A program made the translations under genes and the position numbers. This document shows, piece by piece, positions 1 to 18,151 of a stretch of DNA of 64,000 nt. How positions within the stretch are numbered: the first letter of the stretch is position 1; each line of letters opens with the position of its first letter. A model generated the notes under the pieces. It worked only from the letters and a program-made list of their open reading frames with translations. It was not told the origin of the DNA and searched no databases. The stretch is taken from NCBI GenBank assembly GCA_965198005.1, contig CBDAOI010000002.1, positions 416,001 through 480,000 on the forward strand. The letters run 5' to 3'. This DNA comes from Spirochaetia bacterium (GTDB taxonomy: Bacteria; Spirochaetota; Spirochaetia; SZUA-6; Bin103).

Positions 1-1101
1 GCGCACATCCACTTTCCCCAGTACCGCATGCTGGCCGCCCCCGGCCGTGACCTGCTCGACTGGCTGCAGCGCTTCACCTTCCCGGAGGAGAGCCGCTACG
101 CGGCGCCGGCCCACGCCCGCGTCGCGGCGGAGGTGTTCCTCGACCTCCTGGTACGGCACGGCACCACGGCCGCGGTCGTGTTCTCCACCGTCCATCGCGG
201 CGCTACCGAGGCTCTGTTGGCCGCGGCCGAACGGCGCGGGCAGGCCCTCGTCACCGGCAAGACCATGATGGACCGCAATGCGCCGGCGGCATTGTGCGAC
301 GACCCGGAAAGCGGCGTGCGCGCCAGCGAGGCGCTGATCGAACGCTGGCACCGGCGCGGCCGGCTGCGCTACGCCATCACCGTGCGCTTCGCCGTTACCT
401 CCAGCGCGGCCCAGCTCCGCGCCGCGGGCGCGCTGGCGGCGCGCTACCCCGACTGCTACGTGCACAGCCACCTCTCCGAAAGCGAGCGCGAGCTGGCCAC
501 CGTGCGGCACGACTTTCCCTGGGCGCACGACTACACCGACGTCTACGACCGCTGCGGCCTGGTCGGCCCGCGCAGCCTGTTCGCCCACGGCATCCACCTG
601 TCGGAGCGGGAGTGCGCGCGCCTGGCGGAGGCCGGCGCCACCGTCGTGCACTGCCCCACCTCCAACACCTTCCTCGGCTCCGGTCTGTTCGACCTCGGCC
701 GCCTCCGCAACCCGGCGCACCCGGTGGGCATCGGCCTTGCCACCGACGTGGGCGGCGGCACCAGCTACTCGATGCTGCACACCATGGGGGAAGCCTACAA
801 AGTGGCGATGCTGCGCGGGCAGACGCTGAGCGCGCACGACCTGTTCCACCTCGCCACCCGGGGCAACGCCGGGCGGCTCGGACTGGAGGAGGAGATCGGC
901 GCCCTCGAACCGGGCCGCTGGGCGGATCTGGTGGTGCTCGACCCCGCCGCCACGCCGGTGCTCGAAGCGCGCGCGGGGCTGTCCCGCAGGCTGGAAGACA
1001 CCCTGTTCGCCCTGGCGATCCTGGGCGACGACCGGGCGGTGCGCGCCACCTACGTCGCCGGCCGGCAGGTGTGGAGCCGGCCCGGTTACAATGGGCAATG
1101 A
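1..1101 (+). CDS. guaD: Guanine deaminase (5' end outside window)
   Basis: Frame opens at base 1 with AHIHFPQY (HxH metal motif); also TPRFA-like 'ITVRFAVTS', HLSE, HCPTSN.FLGSGLF, TDVGGGTS, GDDRAV. Confidence 0.93.
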   Translation, partial: AHIHFPQYRMLAAPGRDLLDWLQRFTFPEESRYAAPAHARVAAEVFLDLLVRHGTTAAVVFSTVHRGATEALLAAAERRGQALVTGKTMMDRNAPAALCDDPESGVRASEALIERWHRRGRLRYAITVRFAVTSSAAQLRAAGALAARYPDCYVHSHLSESERELATVRHDFPWAHDYTDVYDRCGLVGPRSLFAHGIHLSERECARLAEAGATVVHCPTSNTFLGSGLFDLGRLRNPAHPVGIGLATDVGGGTSYSMLHTMGEAYKVAMLRGQTLSAHDLFHLATRGNAGRLGLEEEIGALEPGRWADLVVLDPAATPVLEARAGLSRRLEDTLFALAILGDDRAVRATYVAGRQVWSRPGYNGQ

Positions 1102-1808
1102 CGCGGCAGCGCAGACCGTGGCACGAGGTGGCGACCCGGCTGGTGGACGTGGCCGCCGGGCGGGCGGCGGAGTTGGTAGTCCGCAACGGCCGCTGGGTCA
1201 ATCCCAGGATATTTACCATCGGCCACTCCAATCACTCGCTGAAACAGTTTGTGGCGCTGTTGTTGCAACATGGGATCACCGCCGTGGCCGACGTACGCTC
1301 CGCTCCGTACAGCCGTTTCTGTCCGCATTTCAACCGCGCCGCGCTCGTCGCCGGGCTCGAGGCCCACGACATTCGCTATTCATACCTCGGACGTGAGCTC
1401 GGCGGCCGGTCGGACGATCCCGCCTGCTACGAGGACGGGCAGATTCAGTATGACCTGGTAGCCCGCACGCACTTGTTTCGAGAAGGTCTCACGAGGGTCG
1501 TTGACGGTGCTGAACGCTATCGCATCGCGCTCATGTGCGCCGAGAAGGAGCCGCTGGACTGTCACCGAACGCTGCTGGTTGCCCGGGCGCTCGTGGCAAC
1601 GGGAGTAGCTGTCGTGCATGTCCTCGCCGATGGCGAACTTGAACCCCATGAGAAGACGATGGATCGACTTCTGGCGGAGCTGAGCCCGAACGGCGACCTG
1701 TTTCAACCACCCGAGGAGTTGCTCGCGCGCGCCATAACGCTTCGGGCGCAGCGCGTTGCGTTCGTCAGCGCCGGCACGGATACGAAATCGAAGAGGACAC
1801 TGCCGTGA
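1098..1808 (+). CDS. DUF488-family protein fused in frame to the first ~35 aa of an adenine deaminase-like N-terminus
   Basis: ATG overlaps guaD stop; 'LVDVAAGRAAELVVRNGRWVN' resembles Ade N-terminus, followed directly by 'IFTIGHSNH...ADVRSAPYSR...LGG...LMCAEKEPLDCHR' (DUF488). Confidence 0.75.
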   Translation: MTRQRRPWHEVATRLVDVAAGRAAELVVRNGRWVNPRIFTIGHSNHSLKQFVALLLQHGITAVADVRSAPYSRFCPHFNRAALVAGLEAHDIRYSYLGRELGGRSDDPACYEDGQIQYDLVARTHLFREGLTRVVDGAERYRIALMCAEKEPLDCHRTLLVARALVATGVAVVHVLADGELEPHEKTMDRLLAELSPNGDLFQPPEELLARAITLRAQRVAFVSAGTDTKSKRTLP

Positions 1809-1825
1809 GGGTATCCACCATCTGA

Positions 1826-2242
1826 CTAACGGATGAAGTAGCCGGAGACCCGCCAGGCATCACCGTCCCAAATGGCGGTGACGGTCTCTACCGCCTCGGA
1901 CTTGTTCGCGTAGGAGGACGCGAAACGGAACACCCAGTAACGGCCGTCCGGCGCACCGGGCAGCGTCTCGTGATGCTCGGCGGCGGTCCTGGAGCGCGCG
2001 AGCGGGGCGCCCATCGGCACCAGCGCGGCCCGCAACGCTTGCGCGAGCTGCTGTTCGCTCACGGCGCCGCGCATCAGCGCCGCCGCGCCGGTCCAACAGG
2101 CCCGGTAATCGCCGGCATCCAGAAGCTCCAGCCATTCCCCGGCCGCGGCCAACGCTGAGTCTCGCTCATCCATACCCCACCTCACGCCCGAATTCACCAC
2201 ATACGGCGCGGGCCGGCTCGTCGCCTCTCCGGGTTTGCTCAT
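1826..2242 (-). CDS. DUF4019-domain protein
   Basis: 'AAGEWLELLDAGDY..W...LPGAPDGRY..FRF.SSYANK...VETVT...W RVSGYFI' pattern; true start may be the internal MDERD. Confidence 0.8.
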   Translation of the reverse strand: MSKPGEATSRPAPYVVNSGVRWGMDERDSALAAAGEWLELLDAGDYRACWTGAAALMRGAVSEQQLAQALRAALVPMGAPLARSRTAAEHHETLPGAPDGRYWVFRFASSYANKSEAVETVTAIWDGDAWRVSGYFIR

Positions 2243-2695
2243 GGCGCGTCCACATCTTCATGCCGTCGACAGTGTACTCGACGTCACCTTCGCCGGCAGC
2301 ATGGAGCAACTCGACACGGCGCGGCGGGCGTTTCGCCACCTCAACCGTGCCCTGCGCGCGGCGAGCTTCACGGTGGCGGTCGACTTCGCGGACGAGTAGC
2401 AGGGGAGCCAGCAAACCAAGCCCGGCAGCCAGGCAAACACCTCAGCGTCACAGCAAGCACAGCCCGACAGCGCAACAGCGTCATGACTCCGAGTCTCCTG
2501 CTCTTTTCTAGTGCAACTGGGAGCTGATGATCTTGTACGTTTCGCCCGCCGCCGATGAATTCGCGGTCCGGTGCGGCAGCGACGATCCGGACGAGTTTCG
2601 AAAAGCGTTCAATCGGCTGCTGCGAGACATGATGCGAAGCATGGACCAATGGATTCGCAGTCGAAGAACTGACTCGGTATCGGTAATCAGCAAAC

Positions 2696-3088
2696 TCAGA
2701 CCGGCGGCACGACCGCATCTACTTCGACCTCCACGAGGTGCTCGGGCAGCATCAGGGCGGCTACCTGGGCCATCGTCATGGCGGGGCGGACGGCGCCGAG
2801 CAACTCGGCGTGGGCGCGGCCGATGGAGTGGGCATGCTCAATGTCGGTTACCAGGTAACGGGTGCGCACCACGTCGGCAAGCGTGGCACCCACGTCGCGC
2901 AGCGCGGCCTCGATTCGGCGCAGGATGAGGAGGGTCTGCCCGTACGGGTCGCCGACGGCCACGGGCTTGCCGTCGTCACCCGTTGCGGTGGTACCGGCTA
3001 CGAATACCAGGTCTCCCGCGCGCACGGCGCGCGAATATCCGTAGCGTTCCTCCCATTGCGTGCCCGATGAGCTGTGTTTTCTGATCAT
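2696..3088 (-). CDS. RidA/YjgF family protein
   Basis: SSGT.WE...GYSRAVRAG..VFVAGTT, DVVRTR, RPA.T...V..L..LVEVE. Confidence 0.92.
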   Translation of the reverse strand: MIRKHSSSGTQWEERYGYSRAVRAGDLVFVAGTTATGDDGKPVAVGDPYGQTLLILRRIEAALRDVGATLADVVRTRYLVTDIEHAHSIGRAHAELLGAVRPAMTMAQVAALMLPEHLVEVEVDAVVPPV

Positions 3089-3102
3089 GGCTCCGGGGCG
3101 AC

Positions 3103-3531
3103 TATAGCGAGTTTGGACGCGTCACGGTGACGCCTGCCGTCCGCGACGAAGTGCTGGCCGGTGGAAGCCTTCCCGGCGCACCGGAGCTGGCCGCAGCGGT
3201 TGCGAGCGGCTGGATCGAGGTAGCCGAGGCCCATGGCGACGTGGCTGCGCTCGCCGACCTGGACGCGGGTGAGGCGAGTACGCTGGCGCTCGCGGTCGAG
3301 AGTCCTGACGAGTGTCTGGTGCTGATCGACGAGCCGTTGGGCCGAGCCCATGCCCACGCCTCCGGGATTGCGGTAACCGGGCTCGTCGGAGTGCTACTCG
3401 CTGCCAAGCGAGCCGGCTGCATACCCCGCGTCCGGCCTTTCCTCAAGCGTCTGGAAACAAGCAACTTCAGGCTCGCGCGGGTAGTCATCCGCGCCGCGCT
3501 TGAACAAGCCGGCGAAGTGCAGCCGACATGA
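3103..3531 (+). pseudogene. DUF3368/PIN-domain protein, 5'-truncated
   Basis: 'VTPAVRDEV...LDAGEASTLALA...LIDE..GR..A...G..VTGLVGVLLAAK' but the N-terminal DTGPLI strand is absent. Confidence 0.7.
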
Positions 3532-3671
3532 CCGGGGATTCGTGCGTGCCGCCGTCAAGAGCCTCGCAGATCCTCGGCGAGTTGTCGCCGCCGGTCGTCG
3601 GCCAGCCAGGACGCGCTCACGGCATTCAGTATCAGGGTACGGACGCAGCCAGTCCGCGGTCGAGCCGGCGG

Positions 3672-4322
3672 TCAAAAATAGACCTCGGCGAAGAGAGCGG
3701 TGCTGGGGATGCCGCCGACTTTGAGGATGTCGAACGCTTCGAAGATCATCTCGCTGTTGCCGCAGAGGTAGCACAGCGTGCCGGGGGCCGCGGGGTGAGC
3801 GCGCAGGTAGGCGGTGACGCGGCCGGCGAAGCCGGCGTCCGTCGTTACCGGTTGGCGGCTGAGGCACGCCAGGTAGCGGTCGGGGCGGTAGCAGTGGCGG
3901 TCGTAGGTCTCGGACGCCGTGCGGACGCCGTGCAGCAGGCGGTAGTCGAGGCCGGGATAGCTGCGGGCGAAGCAGTGAAACGGGGCGATTCCGGTCCCGG
4001 AGGCCACGAACAGGAGCGGACACCCCCGAGCCGCCTCGGGGATGAGGAAATAGCCGAACGGACCGTCCACCTCCAGCGCCACGCCGGGGGCGAGCCGCGC
4101 GAGCTGGTGCGATACCGTGCCACTCTCTACGTGCTTGATCAGCACTTCCAGAAATGGGTCATCGCTCCCGGAGTAGATGGAGTACTCCCGCCGCGCGGTG
4201 CTGCCGGGCAGACCCAGCGTCACGTACTGCCCCGGCTCGAATGCCAGCTCACCGCGCTCCAGTCGGATCACGTACGCGGAGGGACTGAGCCGGCGAATGG
4301 AATGGACGCGGTGCTCAGGCAC
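3672..4322 (-). CDS. Ferredoxin-NADP reductase-type FAD/NAD-binding oxidoreductase
   Basis: FEPGQY, RREYSIYS, GPFG, ASGTGIAPF, YLCGN motifs. Confidence 0.9.
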   Translation of the reverse strand: MPEHRVHSIRRLSPSAYVIRLERGELAFEPGQYVTLGLPGSTARREYSIYSGSDDPFLEVLIKHVESGTVSHQLARLAPGVALEVDGPFGYFLIPEAARGCPLLFVASGTGIAPFHCFARSYPGLDYRLLHGVRTASETYDRHCYRPDRYLACLSRQPVTTDAGFAGRVTAYLRAHPAAPGTLCYLCGNSEMIFEAFDILKVGGIPSTALFAEVYF

Positions 4323-4357
4323 GCGCGCGTCCGCGACCGGCGGCGCGCAACTGCACG
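4315..4357 (-). repeat. Imperfect duplicate of the mnmG 3' end (other copy 4762-4804)
   Basis: Reads VQLRAAGRGRARA* versus mnmG VQLRAGGRGRMRT*; its stop overlaps the GTG start of the reductase. Confidence 0.85.
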
Positions 4358-4361
4358 TTCC

Positions 4362-4577
4362 CTACTTTGATGAACGCAGAGATGCGTGAGCGTGTTGCGG
4401 CACGTCCACCGGTACGAAGTAGGATTCAGGGTACAGATAGTCTCCGCCTGACTCGTCTACCACGCGCAGATACCCTTCGCGTTCTGCTTCTTCGTCGGGA
4501 ACAGTCTGATAGAGTTTTCGAGTCTCCAGATCGCTGCACTCTCTGTTCTCGATGCACACTACGAATCGTTCTATCAT
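4362..4577 (-). CDS. Conserved small hypothetical protein (putative TA partner)
   Basis: 'FVVCIEN...LE.RKLY....DE.A...G.LRVVDESG.DYLYP..YF' is a widespread small-protein pattern usually paired with the upstream gene. Confidence 0.7.
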   Translation of the reverse strand: MIERFVVCIENRECSDLETRKLYQTVPDEEAEREGYLRVVDESGGDYLYPESYFVPVDVPQHAHASLRSSK

Positions 4578-4578
4578 T

Positions 4579-4661
4579 TCAATCCAGAAACCGCTTGATC
4601 TTCATCCGCCTACTGCGATTGTTTCGATACTCTCAATGGTTCCAAGAACTTCAAAATACAC
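4579..4661 (-). pseudogene. Internally deleted partner gene (MYFEVLGTIESIETIAVGG...MKIKRFLD)
   Basis: N-terminal and C-terminal signature of a ~75-aa conserved family (recalled from memory) joined with the middle missing. Confidence 0.55.
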
Positions 4662-4761
4662 CGAAGACCATTCGCTTTCCTGACTCTTTGGGCAACGATA
4701 GTGTGGGAATTAGTGGGCGTCAAGGTGCTCCCGGCATATGCCGTGCGCTGAAACGGCCTGT

Positions 4762-6711
4762 TCACGTACGCATGCGTCCGCGACCACCGGCGCGCAACTG
4801 CACGAGCAGGATGCTGAGGTCGGCCGGGCTTACGCCGCTGATGCGGCTGGCTTGGCCGAGCGTGCGCGGCCGCACGAGCTGGAGCTTCTCACGGCCCTCG
4901 TGCGAGAGGGCATCGATGGCTCCGTAGTCGAGGGAATGGGGAATGCGCAGCGCCTCGAACCGCTGCAGCCGCTCGATGTTGTGGCGCTCGCGGGCGATAT
5001 AGCCTTCGTACTTCAACTCCACCTCGGCTGCGGCCAGCAACTCGGGGTCGGCGAGCAGCGCCGTGAGCGGGGGGCTGGCGTCGGTTCCGGCGGCGGGTGC
5101 CGCGGTTGCGGCGTCCGCCGGGGACAGTGTCTCGCCCAGCAGGGCGCCCAGCCGGACCTCGGGGCGCCGGCACAGGGCGGCGGCGCTCTCGGGGCGCTGC
5201 AGCTCGCTGGCGCCGCGCGCCCGCAGCCAGCCGTTGACCCTGGCCGGCGCCAGCGTCGTGCGCCGCAGTGCCGCCACGGCGGCGTTGAGCAGCTCGGACC
5301 GGCGGCGCAGCCGCGTCATCGCTTCGTCGCCGATCAGACCCAGCTCATGTCCGTACGCGCTCAGGCGACGGTCGGCATTGTCCTGGCGCAGCACCAGGCG
5401 GTGCTCCGCACGCGAGGTGAACATGCGGTACGGCTCGTACGACGGCTTGGTCACCAAGTCGTCGATCAGCACCCCGACGTAGGCCTCGTCGCGGCGCAGG
5501 ACCAGCTCGTCACGGGCGCCGTTCGCACCGCGGTGCAGGGACAGCGCCGCGTTGATCCCTGCCATCAGCCCCTGTGCCGCTGCCTCCTCGTAGCCGGAGG
5601 TGCCGTTCACCTGGCCGGCGAAGTAGAGCCCGCGCAGGTGCTTGCTCTCCAGCGTCGCGTCCACCTGGTAGGCGGGAAAGAAATCGTACTCCACGGCGTA
5701 GCCGTAGCGCGCCACCTCCACCTGCTCCAGGCCGCGCACGGTGCGTAGCGCCGCCAACTGCACCTCCGCCGGCAGCGAGCTGGAGAAGCCGTTGAGGTAG
5801 ATCAGGTCGCTGTCCAGCCCCTCCGGCTCCAGGAACAGTTGATGGCGGTCGCGGTCGGCGAAGCGCACCACCTTGTCCTCGATCGAAGGGCAGTAGCGCG
5901 GGCCTGCCCCCTGAATGCGGCCGGTGAACATGGGCGAGCGGTCGAAGCCGGTGGCGAGCAGCTCGTGGGTCGCGCGATTGGTGAAGGTGACGTGGCAGCT
6001 CACCTGCGGCAGGCGCGGGAAACGGGCCGGGTCGGTGCGTCGCGAAAACGGCACCGGGCGGTCGTCGCCCGGCTGCTCGTCCAGCACGCTGAAGTCGATG
6101 CTGGCATGCAGCAGCCGCGGCGGGGTGCCGGTCTTGAGGCGGCCGGTCTCGATGCCCAGGCGGCCGAACGCCTCCGACAGCCCGGTAGCCGGCTGCTCGC
6201 CGAATCGCCCGCCGGCGCTGCCGTTCAGGCCGGTGAACAGCACGCCATTGAGAAACGTGCCCGACGCGACCACCAGCGCGCGGCAGCCGATCTCCTCCCC
6301 GGTACCGGTCACCACGGCCGCCACCCGGCCGCCACGGGCCACCACGTCCACCACCATCTCCTCGATAACGGTGATGGCTCCTGCGGCCGCCACCAGCTCC
6401 TGCGCCGCGGCGGCGTACGCCTCGCGGTCGGACTGGCAGCGCGACGACCAGATCGCCGGCCCCTTGGAGCGGTTCAGCAGCCGGAACTGGATGCCGGTAG
6501 CGTCCGCCAGCTCCCCCATCACCCCACCGAGGGCGTCGATCTCGTGCACCAGGTGACCCTTGGCGGTGCCGCCGATAGCCGGGTTGCAGGACATGCGGCC
6601 GATGGCCGCGGCTTCGCTGGTGACCAAGCCAACGCTGCAGCCCATGCGCGCCGCCGCCACCGCCGCCTCGATGCCGGCGTGCCCGCCGCCGATCACGATC
6701 AGGTCGAACAT
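4762..6711 (-). CDS. mnmG: tRNA uridine-5-carboxymethylaminomethyl synthesis enzyme MnmG (GidA)
   Basis: VIGGGHAGIEAA, MSCNPAIGG, RLKTGTPPRL, GPRYCPSIEDK, AGQVNGTSGYEEAAAQG; start ATG 6711 (alternative 6747). Confidence 0.97.
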   Translation of the reverse strand: MFDLIVIGGGHAGIEAAVAAARMGCSVGLVTSEAAAIGRMSCNPAIGGTAKGHLVHEIDALGGVMGELADATGIQFRLLNRSKGPAIWSSRCQSDREAYAAAAQELVAAAGAITVIEEMVVDVVARGGRVAAVVTGTGEEIGCRALVVASGTFLNGVLFTGLNGSAGGRFGEQPATGLSEAFGRLGIETGRLKTGTPPRLLHASIDFSVLDEQPGDDRPVPFSRRTDPARFPRLPQVSCHVTFTNRATHELLATGFDRSPMFTGRIQGAGPRYCPSIEDKVVRFADRDRHQLFLEPEGLDSDLIYLNGFSSSLPAEVQLAALRTVRGLEQVEVARYGYAVEYDFFPAYQVDATLESKHLRGLYFAGQVNGTSGYEEAAAQGLMAGINAALSLHRGANGARDELVLRRDEAYVGVLIDDLVTKPSYEPYRMFTSRAEHRLVLRQDNADRRLSAYGHELGLIGDEAMTRLRRRSELLNAAVAALRRTTLAPARVNGWLRARGASELQRPESAAALCRRPEVRLGALLGETLSPADAATAAPAAGTDASPPLTALLADPELLAAAEVELKYEGYIARERHNIERLQRFEALRIPHSLDYGAIDALSHEGREKLQLVRPRTLGQASRISGVSPADLSILLVQLRAGGRGRMRT

Positions 6712-6897
6712 CGTTTTGCTTCCGCTACTGCCATCTTGTGTCGCCATCTTCGCATTCCTGCGCGTCCGCTGCATCCCGCGCACCGGACCCACAGGCATCT
6801 TCACCTCGGTCGCCCACGTATACGTCTCGTGACAGCAAACCTTGACCAGCTCGCGCACCGTGCTTTCCGCTCGATGCGTGGCCGCCGCGATGTCGAG

Positions 6898-7222
6898 GGA
6901 GTTGCTCACTGGCGGCGGCTCCGGTGGGCACGCTGGCGGCGGTCACACGCGGCGGATCGTGATGGTACGGCCTCGCTTCAGACGGGCGATCGTCTCGCCG
7001 CTGCCGGTCGCCAAGCGTGAGACCGTCGACAGCCGGCGCCGGGTACGCTTGGCGAAGATCGTGCAGAGGCGGGACAGCCACTCTTCCGTGTCATCCATAG
7101 CGTACAACGTGTCAGACATAGCACGATCCGCCTACCCTGTCAAACGGATCTCGTGGTTTTTCTGAGATATTTGCGGTATCGTGTTACACGTGACACGTCG
7201 GGGGCTGGAACATCTCCGCTCG
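6898..7222. repeat. Degenerate direct-repeat copy of the cro-operator-cI 5' region (other copy 8398-8806)
   Basis: Near-identical sequence from GGAGTTGCTCACTGGCGG to CATCTCCGCTCG; this copy lacks ~80 bp of cro and keeps only ~14 codons of cI. Confidence 0.92.
6906..7098 (-). pseudogene. Cro-like gene, internally deleted copy
   Basis: MDDTEEWLSRLC...TITIRR, then a deletion removes the SDHWP..WPAEIPRP segment. Confidence 0.8.
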
Positions 7223-7245
7223 AACGTGTGGCTGTCGTTGCTACG

Positions 7246-8148
7246 CTACCTGCATTGATTGTTCACTAGGCCTGTACCCTCCGGGCACACGGCACCGGCC
7301 TTCAGCAGCACCTCGACGGTTGGGTAGTCCACATCTTTACCTACAAGATCCTGACGGCTGACGACATACAGCGGGTTTGAGTTATCAGGAGCTGCGGCGT
7401 TCACGTCGGCGCCAGCCTTGATTAGCGCTTCCGCGGTCCACGGGTTGCTCACCCCGAATATGGGAGTAGTCCCAATACTATTTCGAGCGTTCGGGTCTGC
7501 TCCCGCCGCGACGAGAGCACTCACGACCGAGGGATCGGCCGAGTAATCGGCCGCCAAGTGTAACGGCGTCCCGCCCCATTCATCGCGCGCGTTCGGGTCT
7601 GCACCGGATTCGAGCAGTGCCATGACATTGACCGAATTGTTCTCATACAGAGCCAAGTCAAGCGGCGTAAAGCCGTCGGCGCGAGCGTCTGCGTCGGCTC
7701 CGTACCGGACCAGGAGGGCTATGTTATCACCGCTATTTGGGGTGGGAGCTGCAAAGTGCAGAGGAACCAAAGAGTCATTATCCTGCGCATTCGGATCGGC
7801 TCCCGCGTCCAGAAGCGCTTCGAGAACGACAGGTGGAACGTTATCCCTAACGGCCAAGTGCAGCGGCGTACGATTACTTTCAGAGTCGCGTTCGTTAACG
7901 TCAGCACCGTTCGCCAGTAACTCGACCACGTCCTCTACCGTGACGCTCGCCCACACGTCTATCGCGAGGAACGTCGCGGTGGTTACAGCGTCTCCTGATT
8001 GATCCGTCACGGAGGACTCTTTCGACGTCTCAATTCTTCCGGCGCTAACGCAGCCAACCAGGGCCAGCGCCAGCGCGACTCCAATCAGTTGCCGCACATG
8101 CCTCACATATACATATGTATGGTCGGTATGGGTTTTCCAAATGTCCAT
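7246..8148 (-). CDS. Ankyrin-repeat lipoprotein (eukaryote-like protein)
   Basis: Repeated TPLHLA / LL..GADPNA.D units; signal peptide with lipobox 'LALALVGC'; visibly AT-richer than neighbours; start ATG 8148 or GTG 8106. Confidence 0.9.
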   Translation of the reverse strand: MDIWKTHTDHTYVYVRHVRQLIGVALALALVGCVSAGRIETSKESSVTDQSGDAVTTATFLAIDVWASVTVEDVVELLANGADVNERDSESNRTPLHLAVRDNVPPVVLEALLDAGADPNAQDNDSLVPLHFAAPTPNSGDNIALLVRYGADADARADGFTPLDLALYENNSVNVMALLESGADPNARDEWGGTPLHLAADYSADPSVVSALVAAGADPNARNSIGTTPIFGVSNPWTAEALIKAGADVNAAAPDNSNPLYVVSRQDLVGKDVDYPTVEVLLKAGAVCPEGTGLVNNQCR

Positions 8149-8294
8149 CGGGTGATTCCTCTTCTCTTGTTGTTGAATCTTGTTGAAGAACGGTAATTCC
8201 ACTGCCGAACTCTCGCCTGCCTTCAAACACAAGCGATGGGCAAGAACCTGTTCATGATACGGCTTGGCGGGATGCGTCAACCGCCGATGTTTTA

Positions 8295-8333
8295 TTTTCT
8301 GTGACTTTTGCGATATCGGGTCACATGTGACAC
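8295..8333. promoter_or_regulatory. Operator-like 39-bp box upstream of the ankyrin gene (copies at 7158-7196 and 8742-8780)
   Basis: 32/39 identical to the box at the cI start; contains the palindrome GTCACATGTGAC; same 15-nt offset from a minus-strand TTGAC. Confidence 0.6.
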
Positions 8334-8405
8334 CTCCGGTTAGTCGTGGCCCGGTCGTTGTGAGCTGCACGACCGGCGCGAGTTTGCTGTGGTCGACGGA
8401 GTTGC

Positions 8406-8681
8406 TCACTGGCGGCGGCTCCGGGTAAGCCGGCGGCGATCACGCGCGGCGTCCTTGGGCCGCGGGATCTCGGCAGGCCATTCCTGGTCGTCGGGCCAGT
8501 GGTCGGACAGGTACCTGAGCGCCCGAGCCGCGCGGCGGATCGTGATGGTACGGCCTCGCTTCAGACGGGCGATCGTCTCTCCGCTGCCGGTCGCCAAGCG
8601 TGAGACCGTCGACAGCCGGCGCCGGGTACGCTTGGCGAAGATCGTGCAGAGGCGGGACAGCCACTCTTCCGTGTCATCCAT
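8406..8681 (-). CDS. Cro-like small phage regulatory protein
   Basis: 'LSTVSRLATGSG...L..G..ITIRRA.RA..YLSDHWP.D.EWPAEIPRP' is typical of proteobacterial prophage Cro-like proteins; divergent from the S24 repressor. Confidence 0.75.
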   Translation of the reverse strand: MDDTEEWLSRLCTIFAKRTRRRLSTVSRLATGSGETIARLKRGRTITIRRAARALRYLSDHWPDDQEWPAEIPRPKDAARDRRRLTRSRRQ

Positions 8682-8697
8682 AGCGTGCATCGTGCCA

Positions 8698-8727
8698 GAC
8701 ATAGCACGGCCTGTCCACCCCTGTCAA
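8698..8727 (-). promoter_or_regulatory. Putative sigma70 promoter of the cro-like gene
   Basis: TTGACA-18-TATGTC with TG extension; copy near 7115-7143 has 17-nt spacing. Confidence 0.55.
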
Positions 8728-8764
8728 ACGGGTCCGGTGGCTTTTCTGAGATATTTGCGGTATC

Positions 8765-9601
8765 GTGTTACACGTGACACGTCAGGGGCTGGAACATCTC
8801 CGCTCGGTGGTACGCGCTCAAGTCGAACGAGAGGGCCTGCGGCCGCTCTCTGCCCGCACCGGGATACCCGTCGGACAGCTTCGCAGCATCCTGCACGGGC
8901 GGGCGGCGTTGAGCACCACCCTGGAACTCGCTACCTCGGCCCTCGGTCTGGAGTTCTACGTCGGACCGCCGCGCGTAGCGGATACGACGCGGATCGCGAG
9001 CGGCTCCACCCCCTACACGGCTGGCACGGTCGACCGAGCCCCTGCTCCGCCCGCCGCTGAGCAGTCCCCCACGTGGGCGATGAAGCTGCGGCAGGAGTTG
9101 CGCGCCGGGCTGCGCGAAGATCTGGCTCTGCTGCTACGCGAGCTTACCGAGTCCAGGCGCAACGCCGCCCTGCCCGAGGCCGGAGACCGGCGCGATCCAG
9201 GCTACGTGGCGATGCGCACCCCTGACCCGGCGGCCGGGGGCGTCCCCGAGCTGGAGCACGCGCCCATCATCGGCTACCTCGCGTTTCAACGCAGTTGGCT
9301 CGAGCGCCACGCGATCGATCCCGACCGCTGCACGATCATGGAGGTGCGGGGAGACGCGATGCAGCCAACGCTGCCGGGCGGCTGCTCGATCCTGGTCGAT
9401 CACCAACGCCGCCGGCGCCGTCTCGGGCACATCTTCGTGCTGCGCATCGGCGACGAGTGGATCGTGCGGCGCGCGGGCAAGGATCAGACCGGGCGCTGGG
9501 TCCTGGTGAGCGACAATCAGCGTCGCCCACCGGAGCCGTGGCCCCATCGCGGGACCGCAGTTGCCGGTGAGGTGCGCTGGATGGCGACGACCTTCTCCTG
9601 A
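8765..9601 (+). CDS. CI/LexA-like repressor: HTH + peptidase S24 domain, probably non-cleavable
   Basis: N-terminal HTH-like 'GLRPLSARTGIPVGQLRSIL'; C-terminal 'EVRGDAMQPTL..G.SILVD...IVRRA...LVSDN...V.GEVRW'. Confidence 0.85.
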   Translation: MLHVTRQGLEHLRSVVRAQVEREGLRPLSARTGIPVGQLRSILHGRAALSTTLELATSALGLEFYVGPPRVADTTRIASGSTPYTAGTVDRAPAPPAAEQSPTWAMKLRQELRAGLREDLALLLRELTESRRNAALPEAGDRRDPGYVAMRTPDPAAGGVPELEHAPIIGYLAFQRSWLERHAIDPDRCTIMEVRGDAMQPTLPGGCSILVDHQRRRRRLGHIFVLRIGDEWIVRRAGKDQTGRWVLVSDNQRRPPEPWPHRGTAVAGEVRWMATTFS

Positions 9602-9712
9602 GCAACGAGGCGCGGCCGCGTGACCGGCGCCGGCCGGGCGTTTCCCGCCGGGCGGTAAGCTGTTGCGTACTACATTGCCTGCCATACTGTAGCTGGCTAG
9701 AAGATATAGCGC

Positions 9713-11100
9713 ATGGCGGACGAGAACACCCTGGAGACGCAGATTGCCCGGTGGCGGGCGCACCTGCTGCACGGCCGGGCAGTCGATCCCACCGACGTGG
9801 AGGAGATGGAAGTCCATCTGCGCGAGCAGGTGGCCGCGCTGCTGGCTACCGGTCTGGCGGCCGACGAGGCCTTGCTGGTCGCGGTCAGGCGGATGGGAAA
9901 CATCGACGCGGCGTGCCGCGAGTTCGCGCGCGTCCACTCCGAGCGGTGGTGGAAGCAACTCGTGGCCGAACCCGCCGGCGGCGGCCCGGCTGGCGGCGGG
10001 CGCACCGAGACCGCCGTGGTAGTGGGCATCGCGCTCGCCGCGGCGGCGGCGATCAAGGTTCCCGAGTTGTTCGGCCACCACTTCGGCAGCGCCGCCAGTG
10101 AGGGGTTCTACGCACGCAACGCCTCCCTGTTCGTGCTGCCGCTGCTGACCGGCTACTTGCTCCGGAAGCGCGGCTGGGACGCGCGCCGCGCGCGGTGGCT
10201 GGCCGCGCCGTTCGCTGCGGCTGCCGTGCTGGCCAACGCCTTCCCGTTTGCGCCGCACGGCGCCACCGGGCTTCTCACCGCGATCCATCTGCCGATCGCG
10301 CTGTGGCTGGCGGTGGGCGTCGCCTACGCCGGCGGGCGCTGGAGCTCGGTTGCCGGGCGCATGGACTTCGTGCGCTTCTCCGGGGAGCTGTTCATTTACT
10401 ACGTGCTGTTCGCGCTCGGCGGCGGCGTGCTCGCGTTCTTCACCGGGACCATGTTCGGCGCCATCGGCCTGGACGTCGGGCGGCTGCTGGAGACCTGGCT
10501 GCTGCCGTGCGGCGCGCTCGGAGCGGTGATCGTGGGCGGCTGGCTGGTAGAGCGGAAGCAGAGCGTGATCGAGAACCTGGCGCCGCTGCTTACGCGCGTG
10601 TTCACGCCGCTGTTCGCGGCGGTGTTGCTGGCGTTGCTGGTGACCATGGTGTGGACCGGCAACGGTATCGCCGTCGACCGGGAGGTGCTGATCGGCTTCG
10701 ACCTGCTGCTGGTGCTGGTCGTGGGCCTGCTGCTGTACGGAGTGTCGGCGCGCGACCCGCAAGCGCCGCGCGACGCGTTCGACGCCCTGCAGCAGCTCCT
10801 GGTGGTGGCCGCACTGGTGGTGGACGTGGTGGCGCTGGCGGCGATCGCGACGCGCATCTCGGAGTTCGGCTTGAGCGCCAACAAGGTGGCGGCACTGGCC
10901 GAGAACCTCATCCTGCTGGTCAACTTGGCCGGGTCGGCCTGGCTGTACGCCCGGTTTCTACGCGGCGCCGGCGCGTTCGCCGCCCTGGAGCGGTGGCAGA
11001 CCGCCTACCTGCCGGTCTACGCCGTGTGGGCGGCGATCGTGGTGGTCGTGTTTCCCCGCCGCTGTTCGCCATACCTCTACCCGTTGCCCGGTCCGCGTAG
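9713..11100 (+). CDS. Membrane protein with N-terminal 'permease prefix domain 1'; frameshift near the C-terminus
   Basis: 'DVEEMEVHLRE....L...GL..DEA..VAVRRMG' prefix plus many hydrophobic segments; natural end PPLFA...* is in another frame at ~11051-11060. Confidence 0.8.
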
Positions 11101-11169
11101 ACTGTGCCAAAGGGAACGTCGCCCAAGAACAGGCGTTCTCGTGGGCGATAGGGGGAGGCGCTATCGCTC

Positions 11170-12176
11170 ATGAAGTGGATTTGGCAACAAGCCGGGTGGC
11201 CCGGCTTCGCGTGGGACCGGTCCCGAATGGCGTCACTGGAGGCCCGGTTCCTGCACGAGTCCGGCCGGCGGGTTGGCGCTTGGCGCCATCTCTCGGACTG
11301 AGCGGCGACTCGCGCAGAGTCACGCCCGCCGAGGCCGGTGTGGCCGAGATGATGGTAGCGCTCTACCGCACGTTTCGCGCGCCGTTGGATCACGCAACGT
11401 TGTGGACGTGGCACCGAATGCTGATGCAAGAGCGCCGAGCATTGGCGGTGATCGGCGGATATCGGCGCCATCCCGAGCCAATGCAAGTGGTCTCCGGCCC
11501 CGATTACCGCCGGAGAATCCACTATGAGGCGCCGCCGTCCGCCGCGGTGCCGACCGAGATGGACCGGTTCATCGCCTGGTACGGGCGGCAGGACGCTACG
11601 CCGGCGTTGACCCGGGCCGGGATCGCGCACTGGTACTTCGTCCGTATCCACCCCTTCGAAGATGGGAACGGCCGGATCGGCCGGGCGCTGGCCGAAAAAG
11701 CGCTCGCCCAAGCGCTGGGTGAGCCGAGTCTGATCGCGCTCTCGCGGGCGATCGCCCGCCGCCGCAACGCTTATTACAACGCGCTTGCGGCCGCCAACCG
11801 CTCGCTGGACATCACCGGATGGCTGGAGTGGTTCGGCGGCATCGTGTTGGACGCCCAGGCCTGGAGCGAGCGGCGCCTGATCCGGCTGATCGAGCAGACC
11901 CGGATGTTCGACCGACTCCGAGGACGGCTGAATCCACGCCAGACGAAAACGCTGCTGCGACTGTTCCGGGAGGAGCCGGACGGATTCAAGGGCGGCCTCA
12001 GCGCTGCAAATTACCGCCGCATCACCGGCGCGCCAGCCTCTACGGCCACCCGTGACCTCGCCGATCTGGTCGCCAAGCGCGCCCTGCGCCGCACCGGCGA
12101 ACGCCGCCACACGCGCTACTGGCTTGATCTGCCCCCGTTCGAGCGATTGGACGCGCAGCGTAGATCGAGCGCATGA
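11170..12176 (+). pseudogene. Fic-family protein (DUF4172 + Fic + HTH) with internal deletion/frameshift
   Basis: MKWIWQQAGWPGFAWD from 11170 stops at 11301; second frame carries HPFEDGNGRIGR and the C-terminal ATRDLADLV HTH. Confidence 0.85.
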
Positions 12177-12282
12177 CCTTCTTGCCGAGGCGCCCGCCCG
12201 CTCGCACGTAGAGAGCAGTACCGTACGCGGTCTTCGGACATGCGTGCCGCGCCATGAGTATCGCTGCCGGGAAGTGGGCCGG

Positions 12283-12724
12283 TCAGCGGTAGGTTATGAT
12301 CTCCAGACTGGTCACCCGGCCAAACTGGGCCGTATTCGCGGTAACCAGGGGCAACCCGTAGCGCACGCTGGTCGCCGCGATCCAGAGGTCGTTGGCCCCG
12401 ATCAGCCGACCGGCCTGCCGCAACGCGCGCGCAATCCGCCCGTAGGCGAGGGCGGTTCGGTCGTCGATCGGCAACAGCAGATGTTGTTCGCGAACGGTTT
12501 GCAGCAGCGGGTCTTCCGTCGGAGAACCCCTCCGCGAACTCGCCCAGCGCCGTAGGTGACAGGTAGAGCTCCAATCGGGTGCAGCCGCCAGGAAACGATG
12601 CGCCGGGCCGGCGATCTCGCAGTGACTGCGCTCCCGTTTCAAAGCACGGTGCTCCCGCCAAGGCACTACGCTCTCGCTGCAAGTCGATGAGAAACGTGGT
12701 GTCGAAAGCTACTTTCGTTGCCAC
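12283..12724 (-). pseudogene. VapC PIN toxin, frameshifted
   Basis: FDTTFLIDL...LGEFAEG in one frame; IGANDLWIAAT...LVTAN...F in another. Confidence 0.8.
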
Positions 12725-12954
12725 CGATCCTCCGGTGCCGCGTCTGCGACCTGTGCAGCATCCAAGCCATCAAGCTCGGCTTCGGTCATGACCGGCATGC
12801 CGTCGAGCACAGCCAGCATGGACGCTACGGTTCCCGGGGCGGGCGGCCAGATCGCACGTTTGATCACCTTCGAGAAGGAGTCATCAGGCGACCGGCGCGC
12901 GCTCCGCAGCCTTTCGTAGGCCTCCAGATCGATGGAAATGGTCTTGGTTGCCAT
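12709..12954 (-). CDS. VapB-type antitoxin
   Basis: MATKTISIDLEAYERL..AR...SFSKVIKR; overlaps the VapC start. Confidence 0.8.
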   Translation of the reverse strand: MATKTISIDLEAYERLRSARRSPDDSFSKVIKRAIWPPAPGTVASMLAVLDGMPVMTEAELDGLDAAQVADAAPEDRWQRK

Positions 12955-13086
12955 ACGTGTATGTGTACACGTATGGCTATGCTTCCGTCAACGAAGTCGG
13001 CGTCGGTGGGGGGCGTCGGTGCCGCTACCAAAAGGTTTCAGTTTCAGAGCAGCGTGTCCTTGGCCAAGCGGTATAGGCGGCCTTAC

Positions 13087-14588
13087 CTATTTGCCGATGC
13101 AGAAGTCGGCGAAGATCCGGTTGAGCACGTCATCGCCGGCGACGATGCCGATGATCTCCTCCAGGTGGGCGACGGCGGCACGCAGGTCGGCGGCCACCAG
13201 CTCGCCTCCGGCGCCGGCCGCCGCCGCGTCGTGGGCGCGGGCCAGCGCGGCGTCGGCGCGCTGCAGGTTGTCACGGTGGCGGGCGCTGGCCACCAGGGAG
13301 CTGCGTTCGGTGTAGTCTGGGCCTTCCTGCCCCACGGTGCGGGCCACCAGCAGGCGGCTCAGAGCATCGATCCCCGTCCCGGTCTTGGCCGATACCGTGA
13401 GGGCCGGCGGCGGCGCCGCAGTACCGTTCGCTGCCGGTGCCAGATCGCACTTGTTGGCGATCACCACCACCTCCGGTGCGCCGGAGGTCGGCGCCCTGGT
13501 CGTGGACCCGGCGTCGGCAACGGCCGCGCGCACCTGCTCCAGGGCGGTGTGGGGAAACGGCTCGTCGGCGGCGGTCACGAACAGCACCAGGTCGGCGTCG
13601 GCGACGGTGGCGATGCTGCGCTCCACGCCCAGCCGCTCCACGGTCTCGTCGGTGACCCGCAGCCCGGCGGTGTCGTGCAGCCGCACCGGCACGCCGTGGA
13701 GGTCGAGGTCTTCGCGGATCACGTCGCGGGTGGTGCCCGGTACGTCGGTGACCAGCGCCAGCGATTCCTGCGCCAGCCGGTTCAGCAGCGACGACTTGCC
13801 CACGTTGGGCGGCCCGGCCAGCACCACGTGCACGCCGTCGCGGAGCATGCGCCCGGTGCGGAAGGTCGCGAGCATCGCGGCGATCGCGGCGCGCACCTCT
13901 CCCACGCGCGCGGCGATCTCTCCCGCCGGCGCCAGCTCCACGTCATCTTCGGCGAAGTCCAGCTCCAGCTCGACGCGCGCCGCGCAATCCAGCAACTGCT
14001 GCCGCAAGCCCGCCACCTGCGCGCCGAGCGCGCCGCCCAGCCGGTTGCGGGCGCCGCGCAGGGCGGCCGCGGTGGCGGACCGTATCACCTCCGCCACCGC
14101 CTCGGCCTGGGTCAGGTCCAGCTTGCCGTTGAGGAAGGCGCGGCGGGTGAACTCGCCCGGCTCGGCGGCGCGCGCGCCGTGGCGCAGAAGGGCGGCGACC
14201 ACGGTCGCGGCCACCAGGTTGGAGCCGTGGCAGGTGATCTCGACGGTGTCCTCGCCGGTGTAACTGGCCGGCGCCCGGAACACGGTGGCGATCACGTCGT
14301 CCACCACCTCCAGGCCGTCGGCTGCGCTTGGCTCAGGCGCCGTTGCGACGGCCGCCGCCGCCGCGACCAGACCGGTGGCGGCGCTCACCCCCCGGGCGGC
14401 GGGCTGCACGATGCGGCCGTAGTGCGCGGTGTGGGTCGCGGCGGCGCGCAACGGCCGGCGGCCGCGGAAGGCGCCGTCGGCCACGGCCAGCGCGGCAGGT
14501 CCGCTGAGCCGCACGATCGCCAGCGCGCCGGTGCCGGGCGGGGTAGCGATGGCGACGATGGTGTCGCCGCTGGGGTCGGCGGACGCGG

Positions 14589-14592
<4 letters not shown>
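13087..14592 (-). CDS. mnmE: tRNA modification GTPase MnmE (TrmE)
   Basis: DTIVAIATPPG, EFTRRAFLNGKLDL.QAEA, GPPNVGKSSLLN, GTTRD, DTAG, NKCD, C-terminal FCIGK. Confidence 0.97.
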
Positions 14593-15728
<1,136 letters not shown>

Positions 15729-15731
15729 CGG

Positions 15732-15932
15732 TTACGAGGGGGCGTACTCGGGCCGCATCGGTGCGAACACCTCGACGAACTCGCTGTCCTCGAGGGCCTC
15801 CGCGGCGCGGTACTCGTTGGGGCCGAAGAAGTAGCTGGGGCTCGCCTCGGCGCCGTAGCTCAGCGTAGTGCGGAACACGCCATCCGGGCCCTCTTCCGGC
15901 TTGGCGCTGTTCAGGTCGGTAAGGTTCGTCAT
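15732..15932 (-). pseudogene. Cupin-domain protein remnant (internal deletion)
   Basis: N-terminal 'GVFRTTLSYG' and C-terminal 'A.ALEDS..VEVFAP.RPEY' of small cupins, but the HxH core is missing. Confidence 0.55.
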
Positions 15933-15996
15933 CGCAGACCTCCGCGGCTGATTGTACTAGAGTTGCGCCCGCTACGGCGACCGGGCCGCCCGTGCT

Positions 15997-16033
15997 CGGT
16001 CGGTCGGGTCGGGTCGGGTCGGTCGGTCGGTCG
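15997..16033. repeat. GGTC/GGGTC microsatellite in the divergent intergenic region
   Basis: CGGTCGGTCGGGTCGGGTCGGGTCGGTCGGTCGGTCG, followed by TTGACA and a C8 run. Confidence 0.75.
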
Positions 16034-16089
16034 ACCGCCCGTTGACAACACGCCCCCCCCGGCAGTAGCTTGGGGCGAGGAGATCCGCC

Positions 16090-16434
16090 GTGCAGGACAC
16101 GATCACCCGCCAGCCGCTGATCAACGTCAGCGAGCGCGCCATTGCCGAGGTCGCCCGGCTCACCGGCGACAGCGACCAGTTCCTCCGCATCTGGGTCACC
16201 GAGGGCGGTTGCGCCGGAATGACCTACGAGGCCTCGGTCGACGCCACCGAGACCCCGTTCGACCGTCGGCTGTTCACCTCCGGCACCGTCCGGATCGTCG
16301 CCGACCGCAACAGCGCCGATCACGTCGACGGGCTGGAGATCGACTACTCCGACGACCTGATCAACCTCGGCTTCCGCTTTCGCAACCCCAACGCCAGCAA
16401 GGCGTGCGGCTGCGGCGCCAGCTTCGCGGTCTGA
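16090..16434 (+). CDS. Fe-S cluster assembly accessory protein (IscA/HesB family)
   Basis: GGCAGM.Y, IDYSDD...GF.F.NPNA..ACGCGASF. Confidence 0.93.
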   Translation: MQDTITRQPLINVSERAIAEVARLTGDSDQFLRIWVTEGGCAGMTYEASVDATETPFDRRLFTSGTVRIVADRNSADHVDGLEIDYSDDLINLGFRFRNPNASKACGCGASFAV

Positions 16435-16438
16435 CTCG

Positions 16439-16663
16439 GTGGCCGTTCAGTCGGTCGACATCACCGGCGGCGAGTCGGTCTACTGCATCAACCAGACCCA
16501 GCTCGCCGCCGCCTTCCGCCTCGCCCGGGAGGACCCCAAAGCCGCGCCCCGGATCGACGCGGCACTCAGCACCATCCAGCGCGACCTGACCCGCAACGAG
16601 CAGGCGGCCTTGGCCTTCGTCCTGATCGACAAGCTCCTCAAGAGCTCCGCGACCCCCGCCTGA
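16439..16663 (+). CDS. Hypothetical protein
   Basis: Clean high-GC3 codon usage; co-oriented and adjacent to iscA. Confidence 0.65.
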   Translation: MAVQSVDITGGESVYCINQTQLAAAFRLAREDPKAAPRIDAALSTIQRDLTRNEQAALAFVLIDKLLKSSATPA

Positions 16664-16701
16664 CGGCTCGGCCGTGCAGTCCCCATCGCATTGCGCTCGT
16701 G

Positions 16702-18081: not shown

Positions 18082-18151
18082 CTCATTTCTCCTTATTGGA
18101 AGGAGAACATATCAGATAGTGCGCCGTATTAAAAGGCGAACTTCGCCGTCC

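Follow-up and report, generated by a model that had tools for sequence, protein, structure and literature searches.

The stretch of DNA analyzed here (hereinafter, the window) comprises 64,000 nucleotides of one contig of a Spirochaetia bacterium, the genome of which (G000; 4,894,403 bases, 90% complete; C2 and C4 denote its contigs) encodes, at 6,800-9,700 of the window, a small cro-like protein and, divergently, a cI-like repressor. The same segment contains the gene of an ankyrin-repeat lipoprotein and three copies of a 39-bp box. An original prediction, made from the DNA alone, described the divergent cro-like and HTH-S24 genes, and this description is accurate, the cI-like protein being readily recognized by its Peptidase_S24 domain (Pfam, E 2.7e-14); the start of the cro gene at MDD (8681) is likewise where the alignment of the family puts it. 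Our analysis traces the pair to Mu-like phages and points to a plausible regulatory connection with the lipoprotein gene. The principal features are the following.

7158..7196, plus strand: box copy 1, with a predicted -10 element of the cI promoter (PcI), TATCGT, at 7177-7182 and a putative operator, ATCGTGTTACACGTGACACGTC, at 7178-7199
7246..8148, minus strand: gene of the ankyrin-repeat lipoprotein, 300 amino acids, with a GAGGA Shine-Dalgarno sequence at 8157-8161 and a lipobox, LVGC, recognized by eye
8254..8280, minus strand: predicted promoter of the ankyrin gene, apparently derived from the cro promoter (Pcro), with a -35 element TTGACG at 8275-8280, a -10 element TATCAT at 8254-8259 and a 15-nt spacer; placed by alignment with 15 cro promoters from other modules
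8295..8333, plus strand: box copy 2, with regulator genes on neither side, a degenerate PcI -10 element, TATCGG, at 8314-8319, and a putative operator, ATCGGGTCACATGTGACACCTC, at 8315-8336, the core of which, GTCACATGTGAC, is a perfect palindrome
8406..8681, minus strand: cro-like gene, 91 amino acids from MDD; a small four-helix protein of the phrog_7669 family
8698..8727, minus strand: predicted Pcro, with a -35 element TTGACA at 8722-8727, an 18-nt spacer containing TG and a -10 element TATGTC at 8698-8703
8742..8780, plus strand: box copy 3, with a predicted PcI -10 element, TATCGT, at 8761-8766 and a putative operator at 8762-8783 that overlaps the cI start
8765..9601, plus strand: gene of the cI-like repressor, with a GTG start at 8765 or a leaderless GTG start at 8774; N-terminal four-helix domain, linker with an AAG motif and C-terminal domain of the S24 fold

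The repressor of the pair is of the lambda-cI/LexA type: a profile search of the PDB retrieves LexA (E 3.2e-6), and the C-terminal domain of the structural model superposes on that of lambda cI (Foldseek E 4.3e-6, TM 0.72-0.76, rmsd 2.1-2.2 Å) and also on LexA and UmuD. A functional S24 domain is not borne out: alignment to LexA reveals the replacement of the catalytic serine by alanine (GDAM for GDSM, corresponding to G-x-S-M of LexA) and of the catalytic lysine by arginine (VRRA for V-K-R), so that the repressor is apparently unable to cleave itself in the classical way. Both GDAM and VRRA are present in all four Spirochaetia repressors that possess the C-terminal domain, and in genus g2 the repressors, as translated, consist of 145 amino acids and lack this domain altogether (5 copies, 3 of them in the family alignment). 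The serine and the lysine are retained in a prophage copy, L042, and in 4 of 4 tandem copies from Vicinamibacterales (G(G/D)SM and KR motifs; L036 and L046). The cleavage-site motif of the linker persists, at the level of sequence only, as AAGG, AAAGG or LAAGTG (alignment columns ~190-200). The N-terminal domain, with four helices within residues 6-59 (pLDDT 78-93), shows the highest conservation within the family and has neither a Pfam HTH match nor a sequence match in the PDB. The possibility that this protein is the LexA of the cell was rejected: LexA_DNA_bind scores above the cut-off at C4:71578 and C2:505074, and the catalytic residues of the cI-like protein are gone. Among the Acidobacteriota copies located in an ilvD-panE setting (L038, L040, L044, L050 and L057), the S24 lysine is an arginine in 5 of 5, and L038 and L040 lack the serine as well; by alignment, a second chromosomal lineage has thus lost these self-cleavage residues independently.

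The cro-like protein matches phrog_7669, a family of unknown function (E 5.8e-23, residues 5-93), as does its homolog in L042 (E 5.2e-23). None of the Pfam and NCBIfam families, including the HTH_35 domain of Ner, was detected in this protein, and a profile search of the PDB gave a single match at the chance level. The structural model is a four-helix bundle (pLDDT 77), for which the best Foldseek matches are XRE-type regulators, but with E >= 0.3, and in VIA-align comparisons (Z <= 6.9) DNA-binding domains appear among mixed helical matches. Weak matches to the cro-like protein (33-37% identity) were also noticed inside open frames of 436-462 amino acids in G007, G005, G006 and G001, and the small domain may exist fused to a larger protein as well.

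The provenance of the pair becomes apparent from locus L042, in a metagenome-assembled genome (MAG) of Bryobacterales, which is a Mu-like prophage with the gene order cI <-> cro -> MuA -> MuB -> Gam -> GemA and tail genes on the other side. The transposase is of the MuA type (phrog_310, E 1.9e-139), the next gene encodes a MuB-type protein (phrog_296), and the pair occupies the c/ner position, with the GDSM and KR motifs of the repressor intact and the cro-like gene belonging to phrog_7669. This gene order implies that the cro-like protein is the Ner-position protein of transposable phages and, combined with the phrog_7669 match in the window, bears out the phage origin that had been proposed: the comparison shows the pair to be, by all appearances, a descendant of the immunity region of Mu-like transposable phages. 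As a lead only, the nearest ESM-Atlas clusters are 50-63% viral.

A profile search with 9 sequences over contigs, with one genome per species, yielded 27 loci, six of which are titled 'MAG: Spirochaetia bacterium', the rest coming from Acidobacteriota (Vicinamibacterales, Bryobacterales and Candidatus Marinacidobacterium). The cI homolog is divergent from cro in all 27, and cI also stands beside cro in the 10 of 10 loci of closer relatives, for which we analyzed 20 kb around each of ten strong cro matches and scanned 60 proteins. Within the family to which G000 belongs, the cro-like protein is present in 13 of 23 genomes from two genera; it is found in 0 of 37 genomes of the other families of the order. 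Phage genes were sought in L042 with Pfam and PHROGs, in 7 other Acidobacteriota loci through single neighbors with Pfam, and in 16 loci through gene calls inspected by eye; outside L042, none were seen, where examined, in the other 26 loci or in the 10 loci of the relatives, and the 60 proteins scanned in the latter include no virion or integrase genes. A YhgA-like transposase, an insertion sequence (IS) transposase and a group II intron maturase are present in the relatives' loci. In Acidobacteriota, the neighbors are housekeeping-like (alaS, rhodanese and amidohydrolase by Pfam; leuS, holA, ilvE, ilvD and panE by eye), with 7 single neighbors confirmed by Pfam, and in genus g2 the module lies between an RraA-like gene and the gene of a family-B DNA polymerase (PolB), a constant setting that indicates vertical inheritance. 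In seven Vicinamibacterales loci (L036, L045, L046, L049 and L051-L053), two tandem cI paralogs accompany cro in the setting leuS, holA ... alaS, ilvE; no cargo gene follows cro there.

In the window, in agreement with the statement that integrase, replication and virion genes are missing nearby, Pfam detected none of these domains in 27 proteins scanned between 1 and 29,400, and the same holds for 14 proteins scanned at a second locus, L009; there is no tRNA gene in 1-20,000. A Transposase_29 gene at 24902-26371 is unrelated to the switch. Between genomes, dN/dS ranges from 0.15 to 0.31 for cro and from 0.22 to 0.33 for cI, which indicates that both are working genes under purifying selection. 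The absence of phage genes around the pair here and in the relatives examined, the purifying selection and the loss of the protease residues together sustain the view that the pair is domesticated. Judging from these comparisons, the analysis shows that it has been kept under selection both in this high-GC family of Spirochaetia and in Acidobacteriota, and that, in the present lineage, the module, with a repressor devoid of the self-cleavage residues, was amplified.

The amplification is visible already in the boxes. Those at 7158-7196 and 8742-8780 are identical (39/39), that at 8295-8333 is identical to both at 32/39 positions, and each starts 15 nt after GTCAA, a minus-strand TTGAC (7139-7143, 8276-8280 and 8723-8727), exactly as had been noted from the sequence. 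The quasi-palindrome recorded for all three boxes is also there, in the form GTTACACGTGAC at 7183-7194 and 8767-8778 and as the perfect palindrome at 8320-8331, in the core of box 2. With a degenerate 38-nt pattern of the box and up to 3 mismatches allowed, the genome yields 3 matches, all in this locus (0 for the reversed-pattern control). Genome-wide, the 12-nt core has 5 distinct locations, namely, the three boxes, the cI start of a second copy of the pair, and C4:257112, a site that falls within the chance expectation (~2, estimated). In the window, the core with at most 1 mismatch has 4 matches at 3 places against 0.9 expected, and 3 of 100 shuffles reached 4, a test that is weak alone and in which the perfect palindrome at 8320 is counted twice, once per strand. 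The whole-genome scan that had been suggested for listing the genes downstream of the box recovered only the modules themselves; with box and core essentially confined to cro-cI modules, a genome-wide regulon in G000 was rejected. Similarly, in 5 genomes of genus g2 the palindrome, with at most 2 mismatches, is found only at cI starts and at one extra site in G021 (reversed-pattern controls, 0).

All promoter assignments in this work are inferred from conservation in 16 aligned intergenic regions. In this alignment, two -35 elements stand back to back. Towards cro, TTGACA is followed by a conserved TGn-TAyGnn; towards cI, TTGGyT is followed by TATCGT. A near-palindrome of 22 bp, ATCGTGTyACATGTGACACGAT, overlaps the TATCGT -10 element and the cI start. 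A palindrome of the same type is found at the same place in Acidobacteriota, where that of L049, GTATCGTGTCACTAGTGACACGATAC, is perfect over 26 bp, and in the prophage L042 it directly follows a perfect TATAAT. This conservation across phyla is the best evidence that the palindrome is a real operator, as it probably is. In the vicinity of the cro start, a recurring motif of a second type can be read by eye, TAGCAC/GTGCTA in Spirochaetia and TGGCAC/GTGCCA in Acidobacteriota.

The copies of the module in G000, to which the following features belong, differ in their state of preservation.

6841..6895, minus strand: remnant of a LuxR/GerE-type gene, 55 nt, 18 codons of the HTH part
6892..7222: left copy of a segmental duplication, comprising a truncated cro (cro'), the promoter/operator region between the genes and the ~15 initial codons of cI
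6943..7098, minus strand: cro', 51 amino acids from MDD, truncated after ...TITIRR, with 93% identity over residues 1-58; points towards mnmG
7138..7143, minus strand: predicted Pcro -35 element of the left copy, TTGACA
8392..8806: right copy of the segmental duplication, with the intact cro and the start of the intact cI
C2:365040-366246: second cro-cI copy, inverted, 58 kb upstream in the same contig, with 97% (cI) and 90% (cro) amino acid identity

The window thus holds three module copies, one intact, one truncated and one reduced to the promoter/operator. The segments 6892-7222 and 8392-8806, which flank the ankyrin gene and are 331 and 415 bp long, are ~95% identical, the left one being shorter by an 84-nt deletion between CGCGGCG microhomologies; because both lie inside one segmental duplication, boxes 1 and 3 do not constitute separate lines of evidence. 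The third, diverged copy of the intergenic region (~8275-8336) is a paralog of the other two. Over 61 columns, box 2 is 57-67% identical to most modules, with lower values for L026 and the second copy, and a TTTTCTG..TTTGCG block is common only to the copies within G000, a pattern that marks it as an old paralog that arose in this lineage. Acquisition of box 2 from another genome was rejected on the same two observations, the near-equal distance to the modules and the block shared only within G000. By our hand count, the half-site consensus of the family is preserved at 14 of 18 positions in box 2, against 15 of 18 in the working copy.

The existence of the second copy means that the pair is not an orphan in the sense of being unique. 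The cro gene of that copy is directly followed by a LuxR/GerE-type gene (GerE, E 6.3e-6), and the LuxR stub of the window is 100% identical to C2:367356-367410, corresponding in a tblastn search to residues 281-298 of the LuxR-type open reading frame (ORF). In the complete second locus (C2:365040-367410, that is, L009 9037-11509), the LuxR gene is split over two overlapping frames, 10285-10626 and 10517-11509, and is either a frameshifted pseudogene or the product of an assembly error; a dnaE2-type polymerase gene (L009 12258-15635) lies ~750 nt beyond it. On the other side, the second copy extends over the first ~530 nt of the perm_prefix_1 membrane-protein gene that, in the window, lies downstream of cI, and then breaks off into a VapBC-like pair. 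The breakpoints recur: the cI stubs of the left copy in the window (7222) and of L022 (~16684), which belong to regulator-less modules of different genera, stop within a few bases of one and the same codon, after ...CATCTCCGCTC, and the truncated cro sequences of the left copy and of L029 both end after ...TITIRR. Such recurrence suggests, as far as the sequences go, that a defined cassette is being copied. The cro-type promoter of the left copy (-35 at 7138-7143) points through cro' at mnmG, ~230 nt further on, and this housekeeping gene of tRNA modification may be under the same switch.

The ankyrin gene, the ATG of which at 8146-8148 defines its coding sequence as 7246-8148, encodes Ank_2 repeats (Pfam, E 2.9e-41) behind a signal peptide with the lipobox L-V-G-C following a hydrophobic stretch, as judged by eye. 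Its composition is foreign, with a GC content of ~55% and GC at third codon positions (GC3) of 0.62, against GC3 values of mostly 0.8-0.95 for its neighbors. The similarity to the Dot/Icm-type ankyrin effectors of NCBIfam (AnkH, AnkY and others) is at the level of repeats only, the best score being 54.6 bits against a cut-off of 600. The gene is the next one downstream of cro on the same strand, a circumstance missed in the original prediction, and no terminator-like structure was found between the two (z = -0.67) or after the ankyrin gene, so that read-through from the cro promoter would be a second route of control. In front of the gene, box 2 keeps the cro-side -35 (TTGACG) and -10 (TATCAT) elements at a 15-nt spacing, whereas the cI-side -10 element is broken and the core of the palindrome is perfect.

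Examination of related genomes for cro-cI genes beside eukaryote-like or secreted surface proteins without phage genes, which the original prediction had called for, proved productive. Among the Spirochaetia relatives, the protein encoded behind the cro promoter is usually a secreted surface protein: giant CARDB proteins in L025, L029 and L028, the last having two such genes, of which the first encodes a lipobox; a He_PIG lipoprotein, directly behind cro in L027 and L030 and, in L021b, L023b and L024b, replacing most of cro while the cI copy is kept; and a fragment with YWTD (LDL-receptor class B) repeats in L023a. Two proteins of unknown families at L026 are an exception to this pattern. The CARDB domain is rare in genus g2, and 6 of 11 CARDB ORFs in four genomes adjoin a module (2/2 in G023, 1/1 in G019, 1/2 in G021 and 2/6 in G022); the cI copies of the g2 genomes are confined to module loci. 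An orphan operator in front of a CARDB gene was encountered, too: the extra palindrome of G021 belongs to a decayed third module that consists of a 5' remnant of cro, an intact intergenic region and a cI cut after ~15 codons, at almost the same codon as the left-copy stub of the window, and is located immediately upstream of a 1087-aa CARDB gene. Combined with the box in front of the ankyrin gene, this case implies that a cassette without regulators, placed before a surface-protein gene with intact regulators nearby, arose at least 2 times. In two related loci, low-GC genes of unknown families follow cro, encoding a 227-aa protein with an N-terminal hydrophobic signal (L021 10493-11176) and a pair of proteins of 305 and 675 amino acids (L026 10637-13578); these may be further foreign cargo.

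The mechanism that we propose is that the locus is a chromosomal, phage-derived module of two repressors, a lambda-cI/LexA-type repressor and a divergent, small Cro/Ner-like protein, which, with back-to-back promoters and palindromes, would form a mutual-repression (toggle) circuit. This toggle would not be flippable by RecA-stimulated cleavage, and the gene behind the cro-type promoter, be it that of the ankyrin, CARDB, He_PIG or LuxR protein, would be switched ON or OFF together with the toggle. Control of the ankyrin gene would come in trans from the proteins of the intact copies, via its own Pcro-derived promoter, via read-through from cro, or via both. Of the original proposal that a domesticated switch regulates a surface protein, phage origin and domestication stand, whereas the regulatory part is only plausible, given the recurrent design in relatives; we put the probability that the switch has a regulatory link to the ankyrin lipoprotein gene at roughly 0.55. 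More tentative, and in our opinion rather doubtful, is the extended notion of a Mu-like immunity cassette with its two repressors turned into a host-owned, RecA-independent, phase-variation-like ON/OFF switch, with copies before ankyrin, CARDB, He_PIG and YWTD genes that would constitute one heterogeneously expressed regulon in host-associated Spirochaetia.

A number of observations weigh against the regulatory link. The original prediction implied an active promoter at the TTGAC adjacent to the box, but a scan with a sigma-70-type consensus gave 0 promoters in 6700-9800, the best -10 element of the ankyrin promoter is only 15 nt from the -35 element, and the predicted -10 elements lack the final T. 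The palindrome lies ~35-55 bp upstream of the ankyrin -35 element, which is unusual for repression, and where it is native, it overlaps the promoter of cI rather than that of cro; as read by eye, the TAGCAC-like repeats are largely lost at box 2. The cargo of the second copy in G000 is a LuxR-type regulator rather than a surface protein, the Acidobacteriota pairs are free of cargo, and many of the related loci are orthologous, so that the association with cargo rests on ~6-7 independent events. Finally, the ankyrin protein has no ortholog with which its linkage could be compared, the best match in 24 relatives being 44% identical and the next best, in a collection of 5.8 billion proteins, 40%.

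The rival that survives these considerations best, although we hold it to be unlikely, is that there is no regulation at all: box 2 would be the decaying remainder of a third cro-cI module, and the ankyrin gene would be there by chance, expressed constitutively or from another signal. This reading accommodates the empty promoter scan as well as the loss of both regulator genes at box 2, its broken PcI -10 element (TATCGG), the shift of the Pcro-type -10 element to a 15-nt spacer and an identity to the working copies of only 67% over 61 aligned columns; decay is, moreover, plain to see in the left copy, with its truncated cro' and the LuxR and cI stubs. A mere relic, however, would hardly be expected to show two differences within the 12-nt core that raise the symmetry of the palindrome, nor does decay fit with the recurrence of the regulator-less design before a CARDB gene in another genus and of secreted proteins behind cro promoters.

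Considerably less probable is a decayed prophage, Mu-like or of the 'ankyphage' type, in which a secreted ankyrin protein would be a conversion gene beside the immunity region, with the rest of the phage lost. The phage origin of the pair and the foreign composition of the ankyrin segment are compatible with this scenario, as are the signal-peptide ankyrin genes of sponge-associated phages that are described in a preprint (bioRxiv 10.1101/608950). Contigs from four 'sponge metagenome' RNA libraries cover pieces of cI that are nearly identical to the gene in the window (9137-9344 without a single difference, other pieces having the allele of the second copy), and one cro piece among these contigs matches the second copy at a loose end; the ankyrin gene is covered by none of them, and contigs of such low depth show neither expression nor silence. 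Nevertheless, the module occupies conserved, phage-free chromosomal settings in two genera, and the loss of the protease residues in all 4 domain-bearing Spirochaetia copies argues for a long residence. Moreover, a search of G000 with the MuA of L042 as the query gave no match, and relatives of the cro-like protein were found neither in GenBank phages (tblastn) nor, by a short-pattern scan that detects close relatives only, in IMG/VR, where the same type of scan gave no relatives of the ankyrin protein either. Equally improbable is an immunity module, in which a non-inducible repressor would block superinfection by related Mu-like phages and the surface proteins would be incidental or serve as phage receptors: purifying selection on both genes, the stable immunity that an uncleavable repressor would confer, the cargo-free Acidobacteriota pairs and the existence of a related prophage (L042) fit this idea, but it leaves unexplained the retention of the cro-like gene, the regulator-less operator copies before cargo genes and the 6 of 11 CARDB ORFs beside modules.

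The genes around the locus, mnmG on one side and a small island followed by mnmE on the other, flank the segment as follows.

4762-~6711, minus strand: mnmG (GIDA, E 4e-150), the GIDA domain beginning near 6711
9713..11173, plus strand: perm_prefix_1 membrane-protein gene (NCBIfam NF038403, E 9.5e-11), downstream of cI
13087-14592: mnmE, beyond the island downstream of cI

The island (9713-12954) consists of the membrane-protein gene, a gene for a Fic protein and a VapC/VapB pair. The Fic protein matches the SoFic model of PADLOC (E 2.1e-37) and has a paralog, with 84% DNA identity, at C2:51717-52555. PADLOC found nothing for cI, cro or the membrane protein, and for the ankyrin protein only matches at the level of repeats, an outcome on which the identification of the locus as a defense system was rejected. 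Just downstream of mnmG, a patch of low GC content (50-56%, 4300-4750) contains a 71-aa ORF (4362-4577, minus strand) that belongs to no Pfam family.

Eukaryote-like surface proteins are thought to decide whether a host tolerates a bacterium and, to our knowledge, nothing is known about how symbionts control ankyrin and other proteins of this kind. A conserved, phage-derived two-repressor switch that repeatedly stands before such genes offers a cheap test system of three promoters, two small proteins and one palindrome. If the regulatory link is real, the host would have appropriated and multiplied a whole phage decision circuit rather than a single regulator; should the link not be regulatory, the locus remains an example of domestication in which the self-cleavage residues have been lost.

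Among the known systems, a close parallel is the early region of phage Mu (c / Ner / A, B) and other transposable phages, in which, likewise, a divergent repressor and a small second repressor head the early operon, with the homologous pair of L042 being followed by MuA, MuB, Gam and GemA. In contrast to Mu, the window contains no transposase or other phage gene, the small protein matches no Pfam family, the HTH_35 domain of Ner included, and the repressor is of the two-domain lambda-cI/LexA type, to which the c repressor of Mu itself is not known to belong. With lambda CI/Cro and P2 C/Cox, the locus shares back-to-back divergent promoters and palindromic (here, putative) operators, along with the S24-fold C-terminal domain and the AAG motif. 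Unlike in lambda, the catalytic serine and lysine are replaced or, in genus g2, the entire domain is missing, and the N-terminal domain has no HTH match in Pfam. The two motif types at the two promoters here are, in our own reading of the alignments, more P2-like than lambda-like. DicA/DicC of the Qin prophage are another case of domesticated phage regulators. The ankyphage protein ANKp resembles the protein described here in being an ankyrin-repeat protein with an N-terminal export signal that is linked to phage-derived DNA; however, ANKp is encoded on contigs of phages that also carry genes for terminase, portal and coat proteins (bioRxiv 10.1101/608950), whereas there are no virion genes here, and the present protein, with its lipobox (recognized by eye), is probably anchored in the membrane rather than released. 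In a literature search that was limited and is too small to support a claim of novelty, we found no description of an amplified whole switch with cassette copies before surface proteins. A precedent for recruitment is that of Ner to SfsB/Nlp, where a phage lysis-lysogeny regulator was recruited for host genes (PMC8987985). The present locus differs in that the whole divergent pair was kept together with its putative operators and amplified, with copies of the promoter-operator placed before newly acquired genes for surface proteins.

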